Program-made: the position numbers and the translations under genes
Assembly (NCBI GenBank): GCA_030696105.1
Contig: JAUYNJ010000001.1
Coordinates: 134,903-198,902, forward strand
Source of the DNA: a bacterium
GTDB lineage: Bacteria > Patescibacteriota > Patescibacteriia > Patescibacteriales > UBA12465
DNA length: 64,000 nt
Reading direction: 5' to 3'
The notes under the pieces: model-generated
Seen by the model: the letters and a program-made list of their open reading frames with translations, nothing else
The model's database searches: none
Told to the model about the DNA's origin: nothing
In this document: piece by piece, positions 3,145-61,902 of the stretch
How the letters are laid out: every line of letters starts with the position of its first letter
Position numbering within the stretch: the first letter of the stretch is position 1

Positions 3145-5142
3145 TTAAATCAGTAGACCGATAATTAATAAGGCAACGATGTTTAGAACCTTGATCATTG
3201 GGTTAATTGCAGGACCAGCGGTGTCTTTATAAGGATCGCCGACAGTGTCACCGGTCACAGCCGCTTTGTGAGCATCTGAGCCCTTGCCACCGAAATGACC
3301 AAGTTCAATATACTTCTTGGCATTATCCCAAGCGCCGCCACCAGAGGTCATTGAGATGGCCACAAAGACACCGGTAATAATAGAGCCGACTAGTAAGCCG
3401 CCAAGAGCATCGATGCCAAGACCAAAACCAACTACAATCGGCACAACAATCGGAATAGCAGCCGGAACAATCATTTCTTTTAAAGCCGCTTTAGTAACGA
3501 TATCAACGGTACGGCCGTAATCTGGTTTTTCAGTGCCAGCCATAATACCTAACTTCTCCTTAAACTGAGCACGCACATCATCAACCACGGCGCCAGCGGT
3601 ACGTCCGACAGCCTTCATAGTTAATGCGCCGAAATAGTATGGAAGTAATCCACCAATAAATAAGCCGGCGAGAACGTATGGATTATCAATTAAAAACTGT
3701 TTGTCGCTAGGCAAGTAATGTGTGAAGTCAGCAAAGAGCACGAGGGCCGCCAAAGCAGCTGAGCCGATAGCGTAACCTTTAGTCACGGCTTTCGTAGTAT
3801 TACCAACCGCATCAAGCGGATCAGTGATGTTACGCACATCTTCGCCTAACTCTGCCATTTCCGCGATACCACCTGCGTTATCAGTAATTGGACCATAAGC
3901 ATCAATTGTAACGATGATGCCGGCCATTGATAACATGGCAACAGCCGCCACTGCTACTCCGTATAAACCAGCCAAAGCGTGAGCACCTAAAATTGCAGCG
4001 ACGATTACTAGAATCGGTAAGGCAGTTGACTGCATAGAAACTGCGAGACCAGCAATCACGTTAGTGCCGTGTCCGGTACGTGATGCTTCCGCAATACTTT
4101 TTACCGGAGCGAACTTAGTTGAAGTATAGTATTCAGTGATAACAACTAATGCAGCGGTCACAACCAAACCGATGAGACTGGCAAAATATAGATTTAAAGC
4201 TAAAGCTGCGTCCGAAATAAACATCATTGTCAACGGATAAAAGGCAATGGCGGATAAAACGCCAGCAGCAATTAGTCCTTTATACAAAGCGCGCATGATG
4301 TGTTGTTTTTTTCCAAGACGAATAAAGAAAATACCGATGATAGAAGCGATGATGGAGACGGCCCCTAAAACAAGAGGGTAGATAACAATATCAGTGTTTC
4401 CTGGGAATAATAATGAGCCAAGCACCATCGCGGCAATTGAGGTCACCGCATACGTTTCAAATAAGTCAGCTGCCATACCAGCACAATCACCAACGTTGTC
4501 ACCAACGTTGTCAGCAATAACAGCTGGGTTGCGAGGGTCATCTTCAGGAATACTGGCCTCGACTTTGCCGACAAGGTCAGCGCCAACATCAGCTGCTTTA
4601 GTGTAAATGCCGCCACCGAGACGAGCAAAGATTGAAACTAAGGATCCACCAAAGGCAAAACCAATCAAGGCAGTTAAAGTTTCTTTTTCACTTATAAACT
4701 GCAAGGCTAATAAATAAAACCCGGCTGTACCTAAAAGTGCTAGTCCGACGACCAGCATACCAGTAACGCTGCCGCCACGCACGGCGACGTTCATAGCTTT
4801 TTGTAAGCCACCGCGAGCAGCTTCAGTTGTGCGCACGTTTGCGCGCACACTCACAAACATACCGATGTAACCGGCAAGACCAGAGAAAAATGCCCCCAAG
4901 AGGAAGGCGGCCGCAGTCCACCAGCTTAAGAATAAGCCAAGAACTACAAATAAAATGATGGCCACAATCGCCACGGTGCGATATTGGCGATTTAAGAAGG
5001 CGCGAGCTCCGTCCTGAATGGCGGCAGCAATCTCCTTCATTTTTTCGTTGCCCGCAGGCAAGCGCAAAACAGCAGCCACAGCAATTAAGCCATAAATGAT
5101 GGCGACCACTGCACTACCGAGGATTAAAAGATTTGTCAGCAT
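3145..5142 (-). CDS. hppA: membrane-bound H+/Na+-translocating pyrophosphatase (V-PPase)
   Basis: H+-PPase signature regions are present ([41 protein letters not shown]) with many TM helices. I moved the start to the internal ATG at 5142 ([10 protein letters not shown]). The longer ORF to 5280 would overlap nusA and encodes a basic low-complexity extension. Confidence 0.9.
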
Positions 5143-6556: not shown

Positions 6557-6979
6557 CTAGGGAAGTAGTGGATTGTTGCCAACCGCGGCGGCAAGATTCC
6601 TCATAATGAAGTAGGTAATACCCCAGGCACCCAAAATAATTAGTAAGCCAATAACACCCTGCGTTATTTGCTTTATCGCGGCTCTTGTCTGCTCCTCATT
6701 GCCGGCAGCAGTCATATATTTAAAGCCCGCAATTACTAAAATGATGACAAAGATTATGCCAATAAGCGAAAGTATGGAAACAATAATGCGTGCGGCTGTA
6801 TACCTTATATCCGCAGGATCCTCAGGACCGAAGGCAGATTTAATCTCACCATTCTCCTTAAATCCATACTGACTGCCAAGCAATGACTCGTCTGCCATTA
6901 CTGGCTGAACTGGAAATAGTAGGCTCACCTGAAAAAAAGCGATGGCAATGAGTAAAGTAAGTGATAGTTTTCTTTTCAT
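6557..6979 (-). CDS. TrbC/VirB2-like pilin-family small membrane protein (paralog G)
   Basis: Signal peptide, then a hydrophobic helix, then the motif KYMTAAGNEEQTRAAIKQ, then a second hydrophobic helix. Same architecture as the tandem array at 52.2-54.8 kb. Confidence 0.65.
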   Translation of the reverse strand: MKRKLSLTLLIAIAFFQVSLLFPVQPVMADESLLGSQYGFKENGEIKSAFGPEDPADIRYTAARIIVSILSLIGIIFVIILVIAGFKYMTAAGNEEQTRAAIKQITQGVIGLLIILGAWGITYFIMRNLAAAVGNNPLLP

Positions 6980-34639: not shown

Positions 34640-34901
34640 ATATATTATATAATTTATATATATTTAATAAATAATAACAATAAGGGGTGGGGACAATTCA
34701 AAATTGATTGATTCTTTCGCTACTATTAGATGTGAACGCCTGTGATTTAGGTTCTGTGTAGACGGTGTAATTAGGCTTATATCAGGTGGACAGATTCCTG
34801 AGCTATTTAATAAGTGACGCTTGTTAACTATTAGTTAGACCTCTATACACAGCGACATGCACAGTATAAGTAGTGCTTACTAACAGGTAGTCCACAGACT
34901 T
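34640..34901. promoter_or_regulatory. candidate oriC module: AT-rich unwinding element plus DnaA-box-like 9-mers in the dnaA-dnaN spacer
   Basis: A 45-bp pure-AT tract at 34640-34683. DnaA-box-like sites (consensus TTATCCACA): CTATACACA 34843-34851 (7/9), GGTGGACAG 34785-34793, AGTCCACAG 34889-34897, TGTGATTTA 34741-34749. Confidence 0.4.
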
Positions 34902-36299
34902 TTAGTATAATGGGTTGGCGTATAGCTGCTTAATGGACTCTAGGTCTTGCTTTAACTTCTCATTATCATTCTCCTTTACCTCTCTAAGAATTTTGTTATA
35001 AGCGTGCATGGCGGTGGTGTGGTCTCTTCCACCTATTTCTTGGCCGATACTTGGATAAGAGGAACTCAGCTCTTCACGAATTAAGTATATAGCGACCTGC
35101 CGGGGGCCAACCAACTCTTTACGGCGGCTATTACCAGATATTTCTTTCAGACTAACTTCATAAAAACGTGAAACCGCTTCAATAATTTCCTTAGCGGTAA
35201 GTGACTTTGCTTGTAAACTGGAAACATAATCACTTAAAGCGTTTCGAACACTCTTTAAAGTTGGCACCGAGTTGCTTAATTGGTGAATAACAACAACCTT
35301 ATTTAAAGCACCTTCAAGCTCACGAATATTATTCTGAACATTATTTGCGATATAAATTAAGACATCTTTATCAAGTGGAAAACCCTTTTCAATTGATTTG
35401 CGCTCTAAAATTGCAATTTTAGTCTCCATATCAGGTTTCCCAACATCGGCAACCATACCAGACTCAAAACGAGATATTAATCTTTTTTCAATCGCTGGGA
35501 TTGACTTGGGTGGGCGATCTGAGGTCATTACAATCTGTTTATCTCCCTGCTGTAGTTCATTAAAGGTATGAAAAAACTCTTCTTGAGTACCGTCTTTTCC
35601 ACCCATGAACTGGACATCATCAACTAATAATAAATCAACGTTGCGGTAAATATTTTTAAAGTCTTTCGCTTTTCCAGTTTGAACAGCCTGAATATAATTA
35701 TTCGTAAACTTTTCACTGGTTGCGTATAAAATTTTATCAGTATGTTTAGCAACCTCGTTGCCGATGGCTTGTAGGAGATGGGTCTTACCTAATCCAACAC
35801 CACCATAAATAAATAAAGGGTTGTAAGCCTTGCCTAGATTATTTACTACTGCACGGCAAGCAGCGTGAGCTAATTCATTTCCACGCCCAACCACAAAATT
35901 ATCAAATACATATTTAGGATTTAAACCAAAGCGATTAGCGGTAACAGCCTTTACAGTGGTGTCCGGAGTTTGAATTTTAGATTCAGAAACAGAAGCATCC
36001 TCAGTATTTTTTATTTGACGCACATTTAAACCAATATTATTTGAGCCATGGCGCAACTCAATTTTATAAATAATCTCGTGCAGTTTATGCTTCGTAATAT
36101 TTTCTAAAGAGTTTACAATATTCTTGTGATACTTTTCTTCCAACCATTTTTTTACAAATGCGTTAGGTACACAAATAATTGCCCGTCCATCTTCGAAGGA
36201 TGACAGGAAGGTATCTTTAAACCATGTTACAAAATTAACCCGAGAAAGGTTAATCTCTAACTCGCCTAGGGTTGCTTGCCAAATTTGATCATTATTCAT
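34902..36299 (-). CDS. dnaA: chromosomal replication initiator DnaA
   Basis: Walker A GGVGLGKTHLL, AAA+ sensor motifs, and a C-terminal DNA-binding helix (HTTAMHAYNKI). Confidence 0.95.
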   Translation of the reverse strand: MNNDQIWQATLGELEINLSRVNFVTWFKDTFLSSFEDGRAIICVPNAFVKKWLEEKYHKNIVNSLENITKHKLHEIIYKIELRHGSNNIGLNVRQIKNTEDASVSESKIQTPDTTVKAVTANRFGLNPKYVFDNFVVGRGNELAHAACRAVVNNLGKAYNPLFIYGGVGLGKTHLLQAIGNEVAKHTDKILYATSEKFTNNYIQAVQTGKAKDFKNIYRNVDLLLVDDVQFMGGKDGTQEEFFHTFNELQQGDKQIVMTSDRPPKSIPAIEKRLISRFESGMVADVGKPDMETKIAILERKSIEKGFPLDKDVLIYIANNVQNNIRELEGALNKVVVIHQLSNSVPTLKSVRNALSDYVSSLQAKSLTAKEIIEAVSRFYEVSLKEISGNSRRKELVGPRQVAIYLIREELSSSYPSIGQEIGGRDHTTAMHAYNKILREVKENDNEKLKQDLESIKQLYANPLY

Positions 36300-36465
36300 A
36301 AGCCTGATGTTTGTTTCTTTATTATAATGTATAAATACAGGGCTAACAAGCGATTCCTATGTTTACAAGGTGTTTATAATAAGTGCATAACTATTTCAGC
36401 TAAGATTGTTGACCTTTTAAAATATTAGTGTTATGTTAGATATAATTATTTAGAATCATTGTATT

Positions 36466-38766: not shown

Positions 38767-39168
38767 CTATTCAGCCTCCTCGACAGCTTCAGATTTTTTA
38801 TCAGCTCGTTTAGCATCAGAGGCAGAGACGAGAATTTGACCAGTAATTGAAGCGCCGCGTTCGATGGATATTTCACCACACTGAACGTCACCGGCAATTT
38901 TTGCAGTTTTGCCTATTGCCAAATAGCGACGAGCTTTAATGTTACCACTGATTTCGCCGTTAATTAATGCTTCATTTGCTTCAACGTTGGCATTTACGCG
39001 CGCTTTTTCACCGATGAACACATTAGCCTCAGTTTTTAGGCTACCCTCAAGGAATCCTTCGATGACAATGTCTCCTTTACCATTAAAATTTCCTTTAACG
39101 CGAATCGAAGCACCAATAATTGTTTCGGCGTCTTTCATACGCTCCAATTTGTTGTCTTTGCTAAACAT
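38767..39168 (-). CDS. bactofilin (DUF583) polymer-forming cytoskeletal protein
   Basis: 133 aa with beta-helix repeats (VIEGFLEGSLKTEANVFIGEKARVNANVEA...). A TTGACA-N17-TAAAAT promoter sits at 39254-39282 on the minus strand. Confidence 0.75.
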   Translation of the reverse strand: MFSKDNKLERMKDAETIIGASIRVKGNFNGKGDIVIEGFLEGSLKTEANVFIGEKARVNANVEANEALINGEISGNIKARRYLAIGKTAKIAGDVQCGEISIERGASITGQILVSASDAKRADKKSEAVEEAE

Positions 39169-39438: not shown

Positions 39439-39511
39439 CCCACTTGCCTATTGACAAATATAGATAATTATAGTGTTAAGTAACAATCCACCGTTCTTCG
39501 CAGAACATTAT

Positions 39512-39585
39512 GGGCCATTAGCTCAGTTGGCTAGAGCGCTTCCATGGCATGGAAGAGGTCAAGGGTTCAAGTCCCTTATGGTCCA
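39512..39585 (+). tRNA. tRNA-Ala (anticodon GGC)
   Basis: Acceptor GGGCCAT/ATGGTCC with the G3:U70 alanine identity pair. Anticodon loop ATGGCAT. T-arm AAGGG-TTCAAGT-CCCTT. Confidence 0.9.
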
Positions 39586-39589
39586 CACT

Positions 39590-39619
39590 AAGAAAGACTT
39601 TTATAGTCTTTCTTTTTTT
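39590..39619 (+). terminator. rho-independent terminator after tRNA-Ala
   Basis: AAGAAAGACTtttatAGTCTTTCTTttttttg. Confidence 0.6.
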
Positions 39620-39655
39620 GTACTTAAACCACATTTATCTCGTCATCGACAGTTT

Positions 39656-39671
39656 TGTTCTACGCAGAACA
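39656..39671. repeat. palindrome unit 2 (TGTTCTACGCAGAACA)
   Basis: Seen directly in the sequence. Confidence 0.7.
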
Positions 39672-39767
39672 ACCTAAAGGAGCCATCTACCTCGACAAGT
39701 GACGCAATTATACAATAATAAACACCAAATTATTAACTCAGAGCACTTAAATAGCTACTAACAGCAT

Positions 39768-39783
39768 TGTTCTGTGCAGAACA
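39768..39783. repeat. palindrome unit 3 (TGTTCTGTGCAGAACA)
   Basis: Seen directly in the sequence. Confidence 0.7.
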
Positions 39784-39973
39784 CCGGTCAATATCAAGTA
39801 AATTATATTTTTTATGGCTATTTAAAAGCGTTGGCATGATAAATTCCTGCCAAATTATTCTAGCGGCGCCACTATTTGATTTCTCGTTAAATTATCAATG
39901 CGCTGTCAGCAAATATGGGCAGCAAAGCAATCCTTGTTCGTTGTTTGATGATTAAGATCTATTTTATCTGCGT

Positions 39974-39989
39974 TGTTCTACACAGAACA
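39974..39989. repeat. palindrome unit 4 (TGTTCTACACAGAACA)
   Basis: Seen directly in the sequence. Confidence 0.7.
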
Positions 39990-40191
39990 ACACTATAAAT
40001 CATCATCGTGCGTTTAATGTACGAGCTATGAGATAGCAGCAGAGATCTAAATATCTAGCGACTTATTATTCGTCGAACAAGTTAAAGCTATATATTGGCG
40101 TAATTAATTCTGCTTTGCTAAATAACTTATTCTTATATGCAAAATAATTACTTGCGAATAGTGTTCTGTTAACGTTAATATCCTTAGATTT

Positions 40192-40207
40192 TGTTCTTTA
40201 CAGAACA
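40192..40207. repeat. palindrome unit 5 (TGTTCTTTACAGAACA)
   Basis: Seen directly in the sequence. Confidence 0.7.
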
Positions 40208-40269
40208 AGCTCTAGAAATAATATCATCTTCTAGGACTTGCACCTGAAACTATTTTGTGTGCAAGCAAT

Positions 40270-40285
40270 TGTTCCACAAAGAACA
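40270..40285. repeat. palindrome unit 6 (TGTTCCACAAAGAACA)
   Basis: Seen directly in the sequence. TGTTCCACA is also 7/9 to the DnaA box TTATCCACA. Confidence 0.7.
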
Positions 40286-40391
40286 AAGCTAATACAGCTG
40301 TAAATCCTAATAAGACAATTAATCACACGCCAAGTGGGGGTTAGATACAGTCATTAATGGGCTTGTGGAATTTATCTATAATAAATATAAC

Positions 40392-40407
40392 TGTTCTGCG
40401 TAGAACA
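40392..40407. repeat. palindrome unit 7 (TGTTCTGCGTAGAACA)
   Basis: Seen directly in the sequence. Confidence 0.7.
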
Positions 40408-40444
40408 TCCGTAGTATTAGGGACAATAAAGGCTGAGGAGGTGC

Positions 40445-40460
40445 TGTTCCGCGTAGAACA
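40445..40460. repeat. palindrome unit 8 (TGTTCCGCGTAGAACA)
   Basis: Seen directly in the sequence. Confidence 0.7.
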
Positions 40461-40587
40461 CTGTTTTTATTACTAACATTAAACAAATACTATAAAAGTA
40501 TGCTAAAATTAGCGCAATATTGAAGCTTTGCTTTTTAAATATTTAAACACTATAATATTAGTATTGAAATTAAAAATTAAACTAAAT

Positions 40588-41517
40588 ATGTACGACACAA
40601 TTATTATTGGTCAGGGACCAGCAGGCATCACTGCCGGCATATACGCAGTGCGCCGCGAGATGAAGACGCTCATTATTGGCAAGGAGCCAGGCGGGCAAAT
40701 AATTTGGGCTAGCGATATCGAAAATTATCCGGGCTTCGTCAGTATAACTAACTTTGAGTTGATTGATAGATTTAATGAGCACGCTATTAAGTCTGGGGTA
40801 GAAATAAAAAACACCACCGTCACTAGCTTACTTAAAAAGGATGACGGCACTTTTGTTGTAACTACAGAGGCGGGCGATTTCGAAGCCAAAACTGTTATTA
40901 TTACCATGGGGCTAGCACCGCGCCGCTTATCAGTACCTGGGGAAATGGAGTTAAGTGGGCGCGGCGTTTCCTACTGTGCTAACTGTGACGGGCCTTTATA
41001 TAAAGGTAAGACCGTGGCTGTTGTTGGTAGTGGCAACTCTGCTTTTGACGCTGCTGAGGTTATGTCAAAAATTGCTGAGAAAGTATATCTCGTAATTCGA
41101 AGCAGTACTTATAAAGCCTTTGACGCCTTAGTGAAAGAAGTGCAATCAAGACCAAATATCGAAATACTTATGGAGGCAAAAACCGTTGAAATAAAGGGCG
41201 AAGCAAAGGTTGAGGCGTTAATATACGAGAATACCAAGCAGGAAAAAATTACCTTACCACTCGAAGGTGTATTTGTAGAAATTGGACGTATTGCAAGCAC
41301 AGATTTGTTAAAAGATTTTGTTGAGCGTGATGAGCAGGGGCAGCTTTTAGCGGATGATAAACAAGAAACAAAAACGCCTGGTTTATTTGCTGCAGGCGAC
41401 GTTGTGCACAGTGAATACAAACAGATAACTATTGCGATGGGGCAAGCAACAGTAGCCGCCTTGTCTGCTTATCAATACATACAGAAGCAAGAGACAAAAA
41501 AACACGAAGTGAAATAA
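40588..41517 (+). CDS. trxB: thioredoxin-disulfide reductase
   Basis: FAD motif IIIGQGPAGITAGIYA, redox-active CANCDG, and NADPH motif VAVVGSGNSA. The start is at ATG 40588 (MYDTIIIG). Confidence 0.9.
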   Translation: MYDTIIIGQGPAGITAGIYAVRREMKTLIIGKEPGGQIIWASDIENYPGFVSITNFELIDRFNEHAIKSGVEIKNTTVTSLLKKDDGTFVVTTEAGDFEAKTVIITMGLAPRRLSVPGEMELSGRGVSYCANCDGPLYKGKTVAVVGSGNSAFDAAEVMSKIAEKVYLVIRSSTYKAFDALVKEVQSRPNIEILMEAKTVEIKGEAKVEALIYENTKQEKITLPLEGVFVEIGRIASTDLLKDFVERDEQGQLLADDKQETKTPGLFAAGDVVHSEYKQITIAMGQATVAALSAYQYIQKQETKKHEVK

Positions 41518-52162: not shown

Positions 52163-52594
52163 TTACACACCGACAACCCCGCCGTTATTTGTGCTACCCC
52201 CCGTCATCGGCAACTCTCTGAAGATAAAGGTGGTGATGGCGAAGGCGGCGAGAATGATGATTAGGCCGATAATTGAAGTCTTTAAAGTATGCTTAGCTTT
52301 AGTGACCGCTTCTTCATTTCCAGACGCAGTCATCCAGCGGTAGCCAGTAAATATCATTAGAACTAAGAATATAATACCGAGTAAACTTAAAATCACTTTA
52401 ATCAGTGTGGCAATCATGTAACTTAGTGAAGTGTCGCCGAGTTGGGCGGTTGTTTGCATTGCAGCGGCTGGGCCGCTTATATTATCTATATAGTTAGTTC
52501 CTCCAGTAGTGGTGTTCTGAGCTAGCACAAGAGCAGGTAAAACAAGTAGCGCGACAACGAAGACAAAAACGGTGTATTTAATAGTTTTACTCAT
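52163..52594 (-). CDS. TrbC/VirB2-like pilin-family protein (tandem paralog F)
   Basis: Signal peptide; GIIFLVLMIFTGYRWMTASGNEEAVTKAKH; second TM helix. I took the start at ATG 52594 (MSKTIKYTVFV). Confidence 0.65.
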   Translation of the reverse strand: MSKTIKYTVFVFVVALLVLPALVLAQNTTTGGTNYIDNISGPAAAMQTTAQLGDTSLSYMIATLIKVILSLLGIIFLVLMIFTGYRWMTASGNEEAVTKAKHTLKTSIIGLIIILAAFAITTFIFRELPMTGGSTNNGGVVGV

Positions 52595-52598
52595 ATAT

Positions 52599-53027
52599 TT
52601 ATAATTTAGCGATAATTTCGAAGAGAACAAAGGTCCAAATGCCCCAGGCGCTGAGAACTATTATTAAACCGATAACCGCGCTGGTTATTATTTTTTTTGC
52701 CTTTGATACGGATTCTTCGTTACCAGACGCCGTCATCCAATTGAATCCAGCATAGATAATTAAGACAACAAAGATAATGCCCAGCAGACTTAAGGCGGCG
52801 TTAACTATTGTGCCGATAGTTTTGGGTAAGGTGTTTTCATCGGCAGTGTTATAGGGCCCAGCTGCACCTGGGCTGCCAGTCCCTACCTTTTCTAACATTT
52901 GCAGGGGATTAGCGTCGGCACTAATGGTGCCAGTATTTGCAGTTTGCGCAAACACGAAATAAGGCAAAACCATTACAGCTGTGAGAATAATTAAGGTCAG
53001 AACCGGTTTTAAAGCTTTAATTTTCAT
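52599..53027 (-). CDS. TrbC/VirB2-like pilin-family protein (tandem paralog E)
   Basis: GIIFVVLIIYAGFNWMTASGNEESVSKAKK. Confidence 0.65.
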   Translation of the reverse strand: MKIKALKPVLTLIILTAVMVLPYFVFAQTANTGTISADANPLQMLEKVGTGSPGAAGPYNTADENTLPKTIGTIVNAALSLLGIIFVVLIIYAGFNWMTASGNEESVSKAKKIITSAVIGLIIVLSAWGIWTFVLFEIIAKL

Positions 53028-53036
53028 ATGAAAAAA

Positions 53037-53435
53037 TTAGGTAACGAGATTAATTACAAAATAAGAAATCGCGTAAGCCGACAAAATTATAATTAAACCG
53101 AGCAATGACTGCACGATGATAGTTCTGCCTTTTTTAGTTTTTTCTTCATTACCAGCGGCTGTTAAGTACAAAAATCCACCGTAAATAACAAACAAAACAA
53201 AGATAATGCCTAATAAGGAAATAATGGCAGTGACAATTCTTCCAGCTAGCGACTCAACGGTGATTCCAGGCAGATAACCGCCGCCTTGCTCAGCAACTGT
53301 CTGCAGAGGCTTATTGGTGTCTCTTTTGAAGGCATCTTTAAGGGTTGGCGCAGCTAATACATCATTCACAAACAACGTAAAAAAGGCAAAACTGCCGATG
53401 ATGTAGTGAGAAACAGTTTTTATAGAAATATTCAT
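53037..53435 (-). CDS. TrbC/VirB2-like pilin-family protein (tandem paralog D)
   Basis: GIIFVLFVIYGGFLYLTAAGNEEKTKKGRT. Confidence 0.65.
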   Translation of the reverse strand: MNISIKTVSHYIIGSFAFFTLFVNDVLAAPTLKDAFKRDTNKPLQTVAEQGGGYLPGITVESLAGRIVTAIISLLGIIFVLFVIYGGFLYLTAAGNEEKTKKGRTIIVQSLLGLIIILSAYAISYFVINLVT

Positions 53436-53439
53436 GCAC

Positions 53440-53844
53440 TTAACTCTTGGTAGTTAATACTAGTTGTAAAACAAAGTAGCTGATTGCATAAGCTGCAAGC
53501 ACAATAATTAAACCAATGATAGATTCTGTGAGTAATTCTTTTGCTTTACGTACTTTTTCCTCGTTGCCTTGGGCTGTCATCCAGGTGATGCCAGCATAAA
53601 TTATTAAGGCTAAAAAGATAACACCGAGGACGGAAATAATTACTGTAATGATTTTAGAAACATAACCTTCAAGCGTCGGGGCAGAAGCGCCAATATCATA
53701 ACCAGCGGCAGCGCCTGTTTTGTCGAGTCCACTCTGCTCACTAAAATTATAAGAGCCCCCATCTTGAGCGAGAGCTAAAACAGGAGCGAATATTGAAGAG
53801 GCAATAATTAAGAAGGCGAAGATGGAGCCAAGTACCCTTTTCAT
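53440..53844 (-). CDS. TrbC/VirB2-like pilin-family protein (tandem paralog C)
   Basis: GVIFLALIIYAGITWMTAQGNEEKVRKAKE. Confidence 0.65.
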   Translation of the reverse strand: MKRVLGSIFAFLIIASSIFAPVLALAQDGGSYNFSEQSGLDKTGAAAGYDIGASAPTLEGYVSKIITVIISVLGVIFLALIIYAGITWMTAQGNEEKVRKAKELLTESIIGLIIVLAAYAISYFVLQLVLTTKS

Positions 53845-53847
53845 AGA

Positions 53848-54252
53848 TTAAATTAATTTATCACCAACAAAGGCGGTAATTGCGTAGGCAGCCAGAACGA
53901 TAATAAGACCAATAATTGCATTTATCATTAAATCTTTGGCTTTCGTAACCTTTTCACTGTTGCCTTGGGCGGTCATCCAACTAAGTCCGGCAAAAATCAT
54001 CAGCACTAAGAATAAAACGCCGATAAAAGACAACACCAGCCCTATAAGTGAGCCGACTCTGGTGGCTAAAAAGTTGTCGCTGCTAGCTCCGACCTGATCT
54101 TTGTAAGCATCAACCATTCCGGCTGTTGCATCGAGCCCGTACTTATCAGGTTCTGTCAGTGCGGAAACCGTTGTGCCTATAAAAAAACCGGCAAGCAAAG
54201 CACAGGTTAAGACAAAAGTTGATACGATTCTGGTAATTTTCGTACTAATCAT
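53848..54252 (-). CDS. TrbC/VirB2-like pilin-family protein (tandem paralog B)
   Basis: GVLFLVLMIFAGLSWMTAQGNSEKVTKAKD. Confidence 0.65.
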   Translation of the reverse strand: MISTKITRIVSTFVLTCALLAGFFIGTTVSALTEPDKYGLDATAGMVDAYKDQVGASSDNFLATRVGSLIGLVLSFIGVLFLVLMIFAGLSWMTAQGNSEKVTKAKDLMINAIIGLIIVLAAYAITAFVGDKLI

Positions 54253-54270
54253 ATATATTATTTATTTTTT

Positions 54271-54360
54271 CACTGCTCTGCATACCAGCGAAGCTGATTT
54301 TCAGAGCAGTGGCCCCTGTTTTAAACAAGGGCCGTGCTTTTCTAAAATCGATTTTAGAAA
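54271..54360 (-). promoter_or_regulatory. hairpin cluster between pilin paralogs A and B (terminator/attenuator-like), including a perfect 22-bp palindrome
   Basis: 10-bp inverted repeat CACTGCTCTG...CAGAGCAGTG (54271-54311). Imperfect GGCCCCTGTT...AACAAGGGCC (54311-54333). Perfect palindrome TTTCTAAAATCGATTTTAGAAA (54339-54360), immediately 3' of the paralog A stop. Confidence 0.4.
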
Positions 54361-54365
54361 CTTAA

Positions 54366-54767
54366 TTACCCGTTGACGATCTGACCTCCAGTCGCCTCGA
54401 CTAATTCTCTCAAGATGAAGGTGGCGATACCCCAGGCAGACAAAATGATGACTAAGCCGATAACACCAGCGCCCATGAGCTTTCTGGCTTCAGCAACCTT
54501 TTCTTCATTTCCACCTGCAGTCATCCATTTGAAACCAGCAGCAAGAATGATGACAACGGCGATGATGCCCAAGAAGAGCATGGCTACGTTGATTAATCTA
54601 GCGACGGTTTCTCTTGGATCGGTGTTGGTTAAGCCGTTGTCTCCAAAGCCTGTTTCGATTTGTTCAAGGCCTAAGTTGAGGTTGCCCTGTGCAAAAGTTA
54701 CAGCAGGCACCATTAAAAAGGAGAGCATGGCAAAAGCCATTAAGTATTTTACGATTGTTTTTTTCAT
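54366..54767 (-). CDS. TrbC/VirB2-like pilin-family protein (tandem paralog A)
   Basis: GIIAVVIILAAGFKWMTAGGNEEKVAEARK. Confidence 0.65.
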   Translation of the reverse strand: MKKTIVKYLMAFAMLSFLMVPAVTFAQGNLNLGLEQIETGFGDNGLTNTDPRETVARLINVAMLFLGIIAVVIILAAGFKWMTAGGNEEKVAEARKLMGAGVIGLVIILSAWGIATFILRELVEATGGQIVNG

Positions 54768-58510: not shown

Positions 58511-58912
58511 TTAAGTGACAGTCGAGGCTGTGTAGGTGCCGTCCCAGCTTATGCCCATGGTATCTAGAACAAGGCGGATAATAACAAAACTCGCGAAGAC
58601 AATGACAAGGCCGATAGTGGCGGCAATCAGAATATTTTTAGCCTTGCCAACCTTTTCGCTGCTGCCTGAAGAAATTAAAAACATTAAACCACCATAGACA
58701 AACATGAGTAGCGCGAGTGAGCCGACAACACCTAAGATTATACGCGAAGCTCTAATGGCGAGAAGCACCATGTCATCTAAGTCATAGTTACCTTGCGCGT
58801 ACTTTGGATCTTCAGTGTTGATAATAGACTGGGCAAGAGTAGGCTCCGGAAGAGCAAGTGGAATTAAAAAGAGGGCGAGAATAAAAGCGGCGATTGATAA
58901 TTTTTTTATCAT
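58511..58912 (-). CDS. divergent TrbC/VirB2-like pilin-family protein (paralog H)
   Basis: GVVGSLALLMFVYGGLMFLISSGSSEKVGKAKN plus a second TM helix. The start is at ATG 58912 (MIKKLSIAAF), which avoids overlap with the upstream gene. Confidence 0.55.
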   Translation of the reverse strand: MIKKLSIAAFILALFLIPLALPEPTLAQSIINTEDPKYAQGNYDLDDMVLLAIRASRIILGVVGSLALLMFVYGGLMFLISSGSSEKVGKAKNILIAATIGLVIVFASFVIIRLVLDTMGISWDGTYTASTVT

Positions 58913-58916
58913 AGTA

Positions 58917-60287
58917 TTAATTAACCGTTTGCTGTACTTTGGCAGCGCCGGCATTGATAGCGTCTATAATCTTATCTAAATTTTCACTCGCAGATTTTAT
59001 CATTTCAGCAATAGCGGTCTCAGCTGCTTGCGCATTCTTTCCTTTATACCAACTTTTAGCGGTTAAAAGTTGAGAAGCAAAGACGCCGATTTCATCGTCA
59101 TTTCTCTGTTCGGAGACTAATGAGCGTAGGGCGGTTGGCTTACCGCTTATTTCTAAATACTTCTTAGCCTGCTGTTCTTTGGTTGCAAATATTACGAAAT
59201 CCCAGGCCTCATTTGGATATTTACTTTTCTTTGAAACCGTTTCAATCCAGTAGTTGGCAAAGTTTACTTCAACTGGGCTCCCTTCAATCTGTGGCAATTT
59301 GCTAACGGAAAAGTTTAATTTAGGAGACATCGCTTTAATAGTCGCGACATGATACGAATAGCCAAACATCATTGCTAGCTTGCCGCTGGCAAATAATTCA
59401 ATTGAGTTTGGTAATTCATCGTTCCAAGAATAAACTTCTTTCCCGGGATTGGCAAAATCGATATAGAAGCGTAGCGCCTCTAATCCCGGGTTATATTTAT
59501 TTTCTCTGTTTGCTTGGGGTAAGACGTGAAATAAGACACGACTTCCTTCCATCATAGTCGCACCATTTTGCATCATTAAAATAGAAAGAATGTCACTATA
59601 GCGCTCGATATTAGTGCCCCCGCCTAAAGCAATGCCGGACTGAACAAGTCCGAGAACAGCATCTTGGCGGGTTAATTTCTTTACGTTTTGCTGAAACTCT
59701 TTATTCCAGTATAAAGGGGCCTGCACAATACTAGCGTTATTAAAAAGGTCGCGGTTGTAAAATAAAGCTAAGGTGTCTACTGACAGAGGCAGGCCGTAAA
59801 CCTGATTATCACTCATAACAACATCGCCGTAGACGACGTCAATAAAGCGGTCCTTGATTTCTTTTAAGGTCGGGCTTTTAACAGTTTGTAGTTGCGGAAT
59901 AACTTCTTTTTTAATAGAGCCCTGTTCAATTGGATAAGCCATAGTGATGTTATCGGGCATCGGGGTTAATTTATTCAGGTACTTTGGCATCCAAGTGTTG
60001 TGGATTGAAAGAATGTCAGGACCGCGATCTTCGGCAAGTGCGTTTAGCAATTCAACTTCATACTCATCGTAACGGAGTTTGCGATAAGTTATATTAATAT
60101 TTGGATGAATGGTGCGGTAAGATTCAATAATAGGTGCGAGTGTATCGGGTCCGTCAAAAACACGCCAGTACGACAAGGTTATCGGCTGCATGGCTTCTTG
60201 AGTTTTTTTATCAACTGTTTTACAACCAAATCCGGTTGTGAGCACAAAAATTCCGATTAAAAATAGGGCGAGAGTTTTTTTCGGCAT
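58917..60287 (-). CDS. ABC-transporter extracellular solute-binding lipoprotein (family 1)
   Basis: Lipobox LTTGFGC. 456 aa with the typical SBP fold length. No permease or ATPase genes are adjacent in the window. Confidence 0.65.
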   Translation of the reverse strand: MPKKTLALFLIGIFVLTTGFGCKTVDKKTQEAMQPITLSYWRVFDGPDTLAPIIESYRTIHPNINITYRKLRYDEYEVELLNALAEDRGPDILSIHNTWMPKYLNKLTPMPDNITMAYPIEQGSIKKEVIPQLQTVKSPTLKEIKDRFIDVVYGDVVMSDNQVYGLPLSVDTLALFYNRDLFNNASIVQAPLYWNKEFQQNVKKLTRQDAVLGLVQSGIALGGGTNIERYSDILSILMMQNGATMMEGSRVLFHVLPQANRENKYNPGLEALRFYIDFANPGKEVYSWNDELPNSIELFASGKLAMMFGYSYHVATIKAMSPKLNFSVSKLPQIEGSPVEVNFANYWIETVSKKSKYPNEAWDFVIFATKEQQAKKYLEISGKPTALRSLVSEQRNDDEIGVFASQLLTAKSWYKGKNAQAAETAIAEMIKSASENLDKIIDAINAGAAKVQQTVN

Positions 60288-60393: not shown

Positions 60394-61902
60394 CTATTTA
60401 TTGTCTAATCGATAGCTAAGCGCTTCGGCAATATGTCTCGGCAGAATATTATTTTCGGAGTCTAAATCGGCGATGGTACGCGCGACCTTAAATAGCCTAT
60501 CATAGGCGCGTGCCGACAACTTTAATGAATCAGCTGCTTGAAGAGCTAAGCTTTCTGCCTCTTTATTATCTTTTTGCCAGAAGCGTAAAACTACTGAAGG
60601 CGCTCGGGCATTTAGATGTGACTGACGTCTGAGTTGTTTTTTAGTAGCACTCTCAACTGCCAATAAGGGAGGCGCCTGTGCGTCACCCGCTATGCTTGAA
60701 AGTTCCGACGGCAATAAACGAGGGACGTTTAGCTGTAAATCAAAGCGATCAAGAATGGGCCCAGATATCCTTTGACGATATCTTTGAATACTTGTCTGTG
60801 AGCAGGTACAGGCTCGTCCGTCATCACCATCATAACCACAGGGACAGGGATTCATGGCGGCGAGTAGCAAAAAGTCGGCGGGAAAGTGGAGGTGGTTATC
60901 AGCGCGACTAATCAAAATCTGGCCTTGTTCAATTGGTTGTCTTAAGGCATCAATAATTACACGAGAAAACTCCGGGAGTTCATCTAAAAATAGGGCGCCA
61001 CGATGAGCTAGTGTAATTTCGCCGGGCTTAGGGCCACGACCACCACCCAATATAGACGCTAAGGACGCATTGTGGTGCGGAGCCCGAAAAGGGGGGCGAT
61101 GGAGCTGTTTAGCAACGCGGTCGAATTCGCCGGCAACGCTATATATTTGCGCCACTTCCAACTGTCTTTGCGGACTAAGATCAGGCAATAAGGCCGCTAG
61201 AGAGTTGGCGAGTAAGCTTTTGCCACTGCCAGGCGGTCCTATCATGAGCAGATTGTGACCCCCGGCAGCTGCAATCGTTAAGGCACGCTTTGCCTGTGTC
61301 TGCCCCTTAATATGACTCCAGGGGTTAACACTTTTCATTAAGACGGGCGTAGTTTCTGGCTTGAAAGCGGGTATATTAATTTCGCCCTTTAATTTGGCAA
61401 TCGTCTGTTTCAGATTTATGACAGGAATAATTTCTATGCCAGGTACTAAGGCCGCTTCAGCGGCATTACTTACTGCTAAATAGGCCGTTTTCAGGCCGGC
61501 TCTTTTAGCAGCCAGAATAAACGGCAGCACTGAGCGTAGAGGTCGGACCTCCCCATCAAGCGATAACTCCCCGCAAAATATTGATCGTTCAAAATCGAAC
61601 TTAAAGCGATTACTAAGACATAGTATGCAAACGGCAATAGGTAAATCATAGCCTGAGCCCCTCTTTTTTAAGTGTGCCGGTGCTAAGTTAACAGTTAATT
61701 TTCTTTTAGGATACGGCAGACCACAATTAACAAGAGCGCTTTTTACCCTTTCACGGGCCTCCGATATGGCTACATCAGGCAGCCCCACTATTGCTATTTG
61801 GCCGAACTCGCCACCGGCGCTGGTGGCTTCAACTTGAATTATTTCTGCGCCCAAGCCAGAGATGGCTGCTGTGAGTATGATTTCTGACATAAATAAAACC
61901 AC
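60394..61902 (-). CDS. comM: YifB/ComM-family Mg-chelatase-like AAA+ ATPase
   Basis: N-terminal Lon-like domain, Walker A GPPGSGKS, Walker B LFLDELPEF, and a C-terminal ChlI-like region. Confidence 0.85.
   Translation of the reverse strand: MVLFMSEIILTAAISGLGAEIIQVEATSAGGEFGQIAIVGLPDVAISEARERVKSALVNCGLPYPKRKLTVNLAPAHLKKRGSGYDLPIAVCILCLSNRFKFDFERSIFCGELSLDGEVRPLRSVLPFILAAKRAGLKTAYLAVSNAAEAALVPGIEIIPVINLKQTIAKLKGEINIPAFKPETTPVLMKSVNPWSHIKGQTQAKRALTIAAAGGHNLLMIGPPGSGKSLLANSLAALLPDLSPQRQLEVAQIYSVAGEFDRVAKQLHRPPFRAPHHNASLASILGGGRGPKPGEITLAHRGALFLDELPEFSRVIIDALRQPIEQGQILISRADNHLHFPADFLLLAAMNPCPCGYDGDDGRACTCSQTSIQRYRQRISGPILDRFDLQLNVPRLLPSELSSIAGDAQAPPLLAVESATKKQLRRQSHLNARAPSVVLRFWQKDNKEAESLALQAADSLKLSARAYDRLFKVARTIADLDSENNILPRHIAEALSYRLDNK

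Follow-up and report, generated by a model that had tools for sequence, protein, structure and literature searches.

A clustered array of 16-bp palindromes with parS-type arms near dnaA in a lineage of Patescibacteria

The palindrome array and its non-coding spacer

The DNA analysed here, referred to as the window, is a stretch of 64,000 nucleotides from a bacterium of the Patescibacteriota (assembly GCA_030696105.1, contig JAUYNJ010000001.1, positions 134,903 to 198,902), and its subject is an array of eight 16-bp palindromes located close to dnaA. The gene order in this part of the window is PBP1a, dnaN, dnaA, rpmH, rnpA, yidD, yidC, a DAGK-like gene and a bactofilin gene, of which dnaN, dnaA and the last two are encoded on the minus strand, followed by tRNA-Arg, tRNA-Ala, the array, trxB and a gene for a DUF6938 protein. 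dnaA occupies positions 34902-36299 and the array lies 3.2-4.2 kb from its start. All but the first copy are housed in 1001 bp of non-coding DNA (39587-40587) between tRNA-Ala (39512-39586) and trxB (40588-41517), the largest non-coding stretch of the window; neither this stretch nor the copies are assigned a strand. A gene for SMC is present at the right edge of the window. The organism is Falkowbacteria-like: its TrxB and DnaA proteins are 87% and 95% identical, respectively, to their homologues in HGW-Falkowbacteria-2.

A scan for the pattern TGTTC-N6-GAACA revealed seven exact copies and one copy with a single mismatch, spanning 39492-40460, while no other exact copy was found in the 64 kb. 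The sequence TGTTCNNNNNNGAACA was matched exactly at 39656, 39768, 39974, 40192, 40270, 40392 and 40445 (n=7). Copy 1 (CGTTCTTCGCAGAACA, 39492-39507) carries the mismatch in one arm (CGTTC...) and lies between tRNA-Arg and tRNA-Ala, 4 nt before the latter. It is followed by copies 2 (TGTTCTACGCAGAACA, 39656-39671), 3 (TGTTCTGTGCAGAACA, 39768-39783), 4 (TGTTCTACACAGAACA, 39974-39989) and 5 (TGTTCTTTACAGAACA, 40192-40207), by copy 6 (TGTTCCACAAAGAACA, 40270-40285), the left half of which equals the canonical parS half-site (G)TTCCAC, and by copy 7 (TGTTCTGCGTAGAACA, 40392-40407). Copy 8 (TGTTCCGCGTAGAACA, 40445-40460) agrees at 14/16 positions with TGTTCCACGTGGAACA, a chromosomal parS sequence considered below, and its position aligns with a copy in each of the two related loci L082 and L085. 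When one mismatch was allowed, 11 matches were obtained in the window against 2.0 expected, and none of 100 shuffled sequences reached 11; the three one-mismatch matches beyond the array region are inside the dnaN, dnaA and bactofilin genes. The shorter pattern GTTC-N6-GAAC was present elsewhere in the window only once, at 61587. An earlier note on this DNA had described eight palindromes of about 16 bp with the consensus TGTTCTACGTAGAACA in an open reading frame (ORF)-free kilobase near dnaA, with no further copies in the 64 kb; the pattern scan and the list of ORFs bore out this description, and the consensus was correct.

Start-to-start spacings of the copies in the window are 164, 112, 206, 218, 78, 122 and 53 bp, and across the related lineages described below the spacings are likewise irregular, ranging from 43 to 559 bp. 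Helical phasing of the copies was absent (34 spacings from 8 lineages; Rayleigh p ~0.3), and neither Tandem Repeats Finder nor a repeat finder detected a tandem or longer repeat unit beyond the palindrome of 16-18 bp. Clustered regularly interspaced short palindromic repeats (CRISPR), a tandem satellite and iterons were rejected on these grounds, in agreement with the earlier note, which had also seen neither phasing nor a CRISPR or satellite structure.

No conserved ORF was found in the spacer. The longest ORFs between tRNA-Ala and trxB do not exceed 62 aa and none is conserved in relatives, nor is an 81-aa ORF at 39473-39718, which overlaps tRNA-Ala. No Rfam family matched the spacer. A hairpin followed by a T-run, resembling an intrinsic terminator, is located directly 3' of tRNA-Ala on the plus strand (39590-39614), and read-through from the tRNA gene into copies 2-8 is therefore unlikely. 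At the other end, a promoter-like element of trxB (TTGCTT, 17 nt, TATAAT; 40528-40556, plus strand) begins 68 bp downstream of copy 8 with its -35-like hexamer. This element was deduced from sequence and alignment and was not listed by a consensus promoter scan; it is kept in the window, L082 and L085, where it forms the downstream edge of the array. Together, the terminator and the promoter-like element place copies 2-8 in a stretch without an evident transcription unit. Logan short-read assemblies of the same organism were observed to break inside tRNA-Ala (at 39518 of the window) and near the transfer-messenger RNA gene (446-830), so that assemblies often separate the array region from the dnaA side.

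Conservation in related lineages

The corresponding loci of relatives, of which about 15-21 kb each were examined, were found through TrxB homologues, except for L203, which was obtained in a metagenome scan and then recognised as syntenic. The comparison comprised eight lineages with TrxB proteins 65-100% identical, namely the window and L082, L085, L088, L089, L224, L226 and L203. All eight carry between two and eight copies, always in the gap formed by tRNA-Arg, tRNA-Ala and trxB: six copies in L082, four in L085, five in L088, seven each in L089 and L224, two in L203, and two exact copies plus one single-mismatch copy in L226. The pooled set contained 42 sites, 40 exact and two with a single mismatch. 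The 40 exact copies fall within about 8 kb of spacer, as compared with none in about 200 kb of flanking DNA, where ~0.24 were expected according to an estimate of our own from base composition.

An alignment of the homologous gaps, which the earlier note had proposed as a check, showed conservation of tRNA-Ala, of promoter-like blocks and of the palindromes only; the sequence separating the copies was too diverged to be aligned. Copy number and the internal positions of copies turn over between lineages. Two copies are positionally stable, one upstream of the trxB promoter and one 3-5 nt upstream of tRNA-Ala; the latter is shared by the window with L082, L085, L088, L089 and L224, and a one-mismatch version of it could also be observed in L225, a locus treated below.

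The consensus of the 42 sites is T-G-T-T-C-Y-n-Y/R-n-R-G-A-A-C-A (the slash marks the centre), and positions 2-5 and 12-15 were invariant in 84/84 half-sites. At the three inner positions the two halves were complementary in 30, 10 and 22 sites, where 26.8, 15.5 and 21.8 were expected for independent halves, and not a single compensatory change was found in the 42 stems. The two halves thus vary without regard to each other, as expected if a protein dimer reads them on duplex DNA but not if they pair in a hairpin. As judged from this pattern of conservation and turnover, the array is a real cluster of candidate binding sites under strong selection.

Locus L225 differs from the others in that the bactofilin-trxB locus is not situated beside dnaA. 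Its remaining copies are just two, each with a single mismatch and located upstream of tRNA-Ala; no copy is present in the 830 bp from tRNA-Ala to trxB, although trxB and its neighbours are intact. An origin-linked role fits this pattern better than regulation of trxB, albeit in a single case. The DnaA of an L225-type genome could not be identified among the best 120 homologue matches. The same spacer of L225 (9169-10000) contains the densest cluster of DnaA-box-like 9-mers of any locus, e.g. TAATCCACA, ATGTCCACA and TAATACACA, the last occurring twice, with seven matches to TTWTNCACA (at most one mismatch) in one 500-bp bin. A scan of GTDB by DnaA retrieved only distant relatives (at most 55% identity), in which no shared motif was detected.

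Every lineage, even where copies are few, has the bactofilin gene (38767-39168 in the window) directly upstream of the tRNA genes and the array. Bactofilins of Myxococcus reportedly position the ParB-parS complex, and the adjacency to the array may be a coincidence.

The origin module and parS-like arrays elsewhere

The cumulative GC-skew minimum of the window is located at 40331, within the array. Two minus-strand genes are encoded between 34.6 kb and 40.3 kb, however, and the skew therefore cannot tell these two positions apart. A probable oriC unwinding module is located about 5 kb from the array in the dnaA-dnaN spacer (34640-34901, minus strand). The motifs conserved there across lineages are, in order, TTGTCCCCA, TTTTCCACA or TTGTCCACT, then aTCCAC and ATCACAG, a GC (GGGG) cluster, trio-like repeats (TAA-TAA-CAA-TAA) and, beside dnaN, a block of about 45 bp that consists of A and T only. 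The DnaA box (TTGTCCCCA on the minus strand), the GGGG cluster, the trio-like repeats and the AT block of this module are all conserved in five lineages, and the dnaA-dnaN spacers of relatives hold exact TTTTCCACA or TTATCCACA boxes. Origins of the Bacillus type are built from a box, a GC cluster, a DnaA-trio and an AT-rich unwinding region; the dnaA-dnaN spacer presents the same design and looks like a complete unwinding module of this type. The residues of DnaA domain IV that contact bases are kept (SRRKELVGPRQ...YPSIG...GGRDHTTAMHA), the equivalents of E. coli R399, P423, D433, H434, T435 and H439 being canonical.

In the array region, no match to TTATCCACA with at most one mismatch was detected. 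Copy 6 agrees with a DnaA box at 7/9 positions, as the earlier note had correctly stated: TGTTCCACA matches TTATCCACA at 7/9 and TTWTNCACA at 8/9. Given the separate module of boxes and DNA unwinding element, the canonical contacts of DnaA, and the invariance of TGTTC as against the variable CACA, the array is a module separate from oriC proper. The suggestion that it might be a second initiator or DnaA-box module is consequently not supported, the boxes, trios and unwinding element being in the dnaA-dnaN spacer and CACA belonging to the variable part of the palindromes. The array resembles DnaA-box clusters of oriC in that short motifs are clustered near the origin and one copy is DnaA-box-like, but the wrong bases are conserved and a canonical-looking oriC module is present 5 kb away. 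On the other side of dnaA, the dnaA-rpmH spacer (36300-36465) was unusually conserved, with 80% identity across five lineages; it contains the twin motif ATGTTTAcAAGGTGTTTATAA, the complement of which reads TTATAAACA / TTGTAAACA, and these motifs may be weak DnaA boxes for autoregulation. Downstream of dnaA in a Berkelbacteria locus (L020, 11813-15085), seven 13-bp palindromes of the form AAGGAC-N-GTCCTT were observed, mostly in pairs 23 bp apart.

TGTTCCACGTGGAACA is the chromosomal parS of P. aeruginosa and P. putida and, with one change, of M. xanthus with its 22 clustered parS sites (PMC7022226, PMC4368675); the half-parS GTTCCAC is bound on its own by several ParB proteins (PMC7022226). 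The arms TGTTC and GAACA of the array are identical to those of TGTTCCACGTGGAACA (10/10), TGTTCCACGTGGAACA fits the degenerate consensus of the 42 sites at every position, and the half-parS is present in 10/42 sites. The likeness to parS pointed out in the earlier note thus goes further than the shared layout with a different dinucleotide in each arm that it had described, since the arms match the variant TGTTCCACGTGGAACA exactly. The array shares with the parS of Pseudomonas and Myxococcus the 16-bp palindrome, the arms, a pyrimidine at position 6, a YR centre and the occurrence of multiple copies near oriC. It differs in that its core is relaxed to Y-n-Y-R-n-R and is never CACGTG, in that the copies are packed in one dedicated 1-kb non-coding spacer and not scattered in and between genes over tens of kb, and in that no parAB is found near it.

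Metagenomes were scanned with a query of two TGTTCY-N4-RGAACA sites at a gap of 84-114 bp, which yielded at least 120 loci; among the loci listed, 88/120 had the CACGTG core in at least half of their sites. ParB ORFs within 3 kb of an array were counted with a ParB hidden Markov model (HMM) built from the scanned loci. Within the class selected by this query and among the loci listed, ParB was detected beside 28/88 arrays with the canonical core and 10/32 arrays with other cores; when the listed loci were restricted to those flanked by 3 kb or more on each side, the values were 8/12 and 4/6. Clustered palindromes with the same arms are therefore ParB-linked at similar rates whatever their core. 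In four loci (L154, L155, L174 and L177), arrays with conserved arms and variable cores, as in the window, are situated directly upstream of gidB-parA-parB, as confirmed by the Pfam domains ParB_N, HTH_ParB and ParB_C, and several canonical-core arrays have dnaA or dnaN only a few kb away. Like the array of the window, the metagenomic arrays upstream of (gidB-)parA-parB consist of many 16-bp palindromes in non-coding DNA with irregular spacings of 30-200 bp; they adjoin a par operon, however, which they may autoregulate, whereas the array of the window adjoins tRNA-Ala and trxB. Some canonical TGTTCCACGTGGAACA arrays were very dense, with 26 copies in 1.9 kb in L223, 17 in about 1.4 kb in L178 (2508-3963) and 11 within about 2.1 kb in L214 (1344-3485), where the array abuts the parB gene.

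A scan of viral contigs with the same query gave 13 loci, and in several of them the sites of an array had one fixed core, either the canonical or another. Two phage-like contigs have arrays with the same arms and other, fixed cores: L094 (8400-8625) carries six copies of TGTTCCAATGGGAACA spaced 30-39 bp apart, and L095 (10557-10827) five copies of TGTTCCAAAAGGAACA; both may be phage-plasmid centromeres or operators. Among plasmid centromeres of type Ia, F sopC consists of 12 repeats, each with a 16-bp inverted repeat, and is a regular tandem repeat, unlike the array of the window with no repeat unit beyond the palindrome. ParB was not found near dnaA in about 25 loci of Patescibacteria. One Patescibacteria metagenome-assembled genome (MAG), L016, has two perfect canonical parS sites (3257-3272 and 4250-4265) 5-6 kb from dnaA, showing that parS sequences do occur in Patescibacteria. 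These two sites have identical flanks (ATTGTTCCACGTGGAACAATTTGA) and bracket a 222-aa ORF and a tRNA-like sequence; the pair may reflect the duplication of a site or mark a small mobile unit.

LexA or another plausible DNA-binding regulator was detected neither in the window (Pfam on about 60 ORFs, with a relaxed-threshold rerun on the unannotated ones) nor in the flanks of the relatives' loci. The unannotated proteins of the window look like membrane or secreted proteins, and the DUF6938 protein looks like a glycosyltransferase. Proteins of about 135 aa with a T4SS_pilin domain (PF18895) are encoded by six tandem paralogues at 52163-54767 and by two dispersed copies at 6557-6979 and 58511-58954.

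Interpretation of the array

The array is best read as a lineage-specific, origin-proximal parS-type centromere with a relaxed core, or as an SMC-loading zone, and a probability of about one half is assigned to this reading. A homodimer would bind each 16-bp palindrome on duplex DNA, each of its DNA-reading heads recognising one outer arm (TGTTC) with a weak preference for Y-n-Y. The most likely protein would be a CTPase of the ParB family, with its gene in another part of the genome. A large ParB-DNA complex would assemble from eight loading sites set close together in 1 kb of transcriptionally quiet DNA, about 5 kb from oriC, and through it the origin, once replicated, might be marked for ParA-driven segregation and/or for loading of SMC. 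The identity of the binding protein and the function in segregation are what we infer; ParB as the binder in the array lineage is a prediction, read from the 64-kb window and the loci of the relatives. Of the four roles that the earlier note had considered, that of a ParB-like centromere cluster is favoured over the other three, in view of the exact match of the arms and of the mostly ParB-linked same-arm arrays in metagenomes. While a ParB-type centromere is of a known kind, the arm-only specificity, the dedicated non-coding spacer and the occurrence in Patescibacteria would be new.

Several observations weigh against a ParB-type centromere. No gene for ParB or ParA was detected in the 64-kb window (Pfam on essentially all ORFs of at least 70 aa, and the ParB HMM) or in about 21 kb of each of eight relatives. 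The CACGTG core is present in 0/42 sites, the closest approach being 5/6 in L085 and 4/6 in the window. Position 7 separates parS from Noc sites in the ParB proteins that have been studied, and it is free in these sites. In more distant relatives with dnaA at a different locus (L228 and L229), the DNA up to 10 kb from dnaA is free of such sites, indicating that the array is specific to one clade. The base rate of ParB linkage holds only for the class of arrays selected by the scan query. The most deeply conserved copy is the one 3-5 nt upstream of tRNA-Ala, a position that would also suit an operator.

It is unlikely, though worth weighing, that the array is an operator array for a dimeric helix-turn-helix (HTH) factor, e.g. 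a Rex-, CRP/FNR- or LexA-like protein, through which tRNA-Ala and/or trxB would be controlled; cooperative binding might be involved, or a loop spanning 1 kb. The 5-N6-5 layout with half-site centres 11 bp apart is, as far as sequence tells, that of many dimeric HTH operators; the tRNA-Ala-proximal copy is kept in six lineages, with a degenerate remnant in L225, and the last copy keeps its place upstream of the trxB promoter-like element. With their flanks, about half of the sites read TTGTTC...GAACAA, which has its outer bases in common with the Rex boxes of clostridia (TTGTTAA-N4-TTAACAA); trxB, for its part, is a redox gene. The flanking T/A is, however, only ~50% conserved, and a spread of eight sites across 970 bp, mostly with hundreds of bp to the nearest promoter, is unlike local operators. 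A streamlined genome would, moreover, keep a dedicated 1-kb spacer only to hold sites, the motif occurs at no other promoter in the 64 kb or in about 150 kb of relatives, no candidate regulator lies beside the locus or in the window, and the trxB spacer of L225 has lost every copy with trxB and its neighbours intact. As to LexA, Gram-positive boxes are GAAC-N4-GTTC and those of Verrucomicrobia TGTTC-N4-GAACA. The copies resemble LexA boxes and Rex/CRP-type operators as palindromes of GTTC/GAAC-like arms, a type read by dimeric HTH proteins, but their spacer is 6 and not 4 nt, and eight sites share a single intergenic spacer, with repair genes preceded by none. Neither GTTC-N4-GAAC nor GAAC-N4-GTTC was present in the window. 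The kinship with LexA (Cheo) boxes suggested in the earlier note is thus superficial, and a LexA (SOS) operator was rejected, as the window has neither N4 boxes nor a LexA gene and the flanking genes are tRNA-Ala and trxB.

Rather improbable is a cluster organising the origin through a lineage-specific protein other than ParB, either centromere-like or replication-regulatory, in the manner of RacA-ram or of factors that sequester the origin or time replication. The skew minimum in the array with oriC about 5 kb away, the lack of par genes in the window, the degenerate core unlike that of studied parS, and the restriction to one clade, with no array near dnaA in L228 and L229, would all agree with such a protein. 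Since the arms agree with parS at 10/10 positions and arrays sharing them are linked to ParB elsewhere, an unrelated protein is nevertheless less economical, and no candidate gene for it was found in the window. In Bacillus subtilis, ram is a GC-rich 14-mer distributed over hundreds of kb and bound by the sporulation-specific RacA; the array is comparable as a short palindrome repeated in the origin region, where ram serves to organise or anchor the chromosome, but ram is dispersed and the sequences bear no resemblance. That the palindromes are variant DnaA boxes in head-to-head pairs, and the 1-kb stretch oriC itself, is largely refuted: the skew minimum and the DnaA-box-like stretch of copy 6 speak for it, but the skew does not have the necessary resolution, TGTTC is invariant while CACA is variable or absent in most copies, domain IV has canonical contacts, and the conserved module of box, GC cluster, trio and AT block lies in the dnaA-dnaN spacer. 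It is equally improbable that the copies are selfish or structural repeats, of the repetitive extragenic palindromic (REP) or miniature inverted-repeat transposable element (MITE) kind, or RNA hairpins acting as processing sites, terminators or small RNAs. In favour of these, a stem of 5-6 bp can be drawn for each copy, and tRNA genes, often used as integration sites, precede the region. The copies are, however, confined to one syntenic spacer in eight lineages, none being present in other intergenic DNA examined, and have no longer unit. Hairpins, including the array of small hairpin RNAs proposed earlier, are contradicted by the terminator preceding copies 2-8, the lack of T-runs after the palindromes and of an Rfam match, the lack of compensatory variation, and inner pairing at the level expected by chance for independent half-sites.

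To the reading as a parS-type centromere a more specific and tentative one may be added, namely that a 'regional' centromere, dedicated and free of genes, may have evolved in the clade. The rapidly evolving spacer of 1 kb would be kept only for its four to eight arm-only parS-like sites, and these would be read by a ParB that is relaxed in its specificity for the core or, if ParABS is lacking, by an unrelated origin-organising protein.

Searches of the full-text literature for chromosome segregation (ParB/parS) in Patescibacteria, Saccharibacteria or the candidate phyla radiation (CPR) returned nothing relevant, and segregation appears to be unstudied in these bacteria, which make up a large share of bacterial diversity and have genomes of roughly 1 Mb. 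A conserved and easily recognised array near the origin offers a concrete handle on it, and might serve as a marker of the origin region in fragmented MAGs. A streamlined genome here pays 1 kb of non-coding DNA to hold predicted binding sites. The array predicts a ParB of this clade that would be specific for the arms only and tolerate a relaxed core. If the clade has no ParB, the array would point to a new centromere protein, and a lack of ParABS as a whole would imply a new centromere-binding system in ultra-small bacteria.

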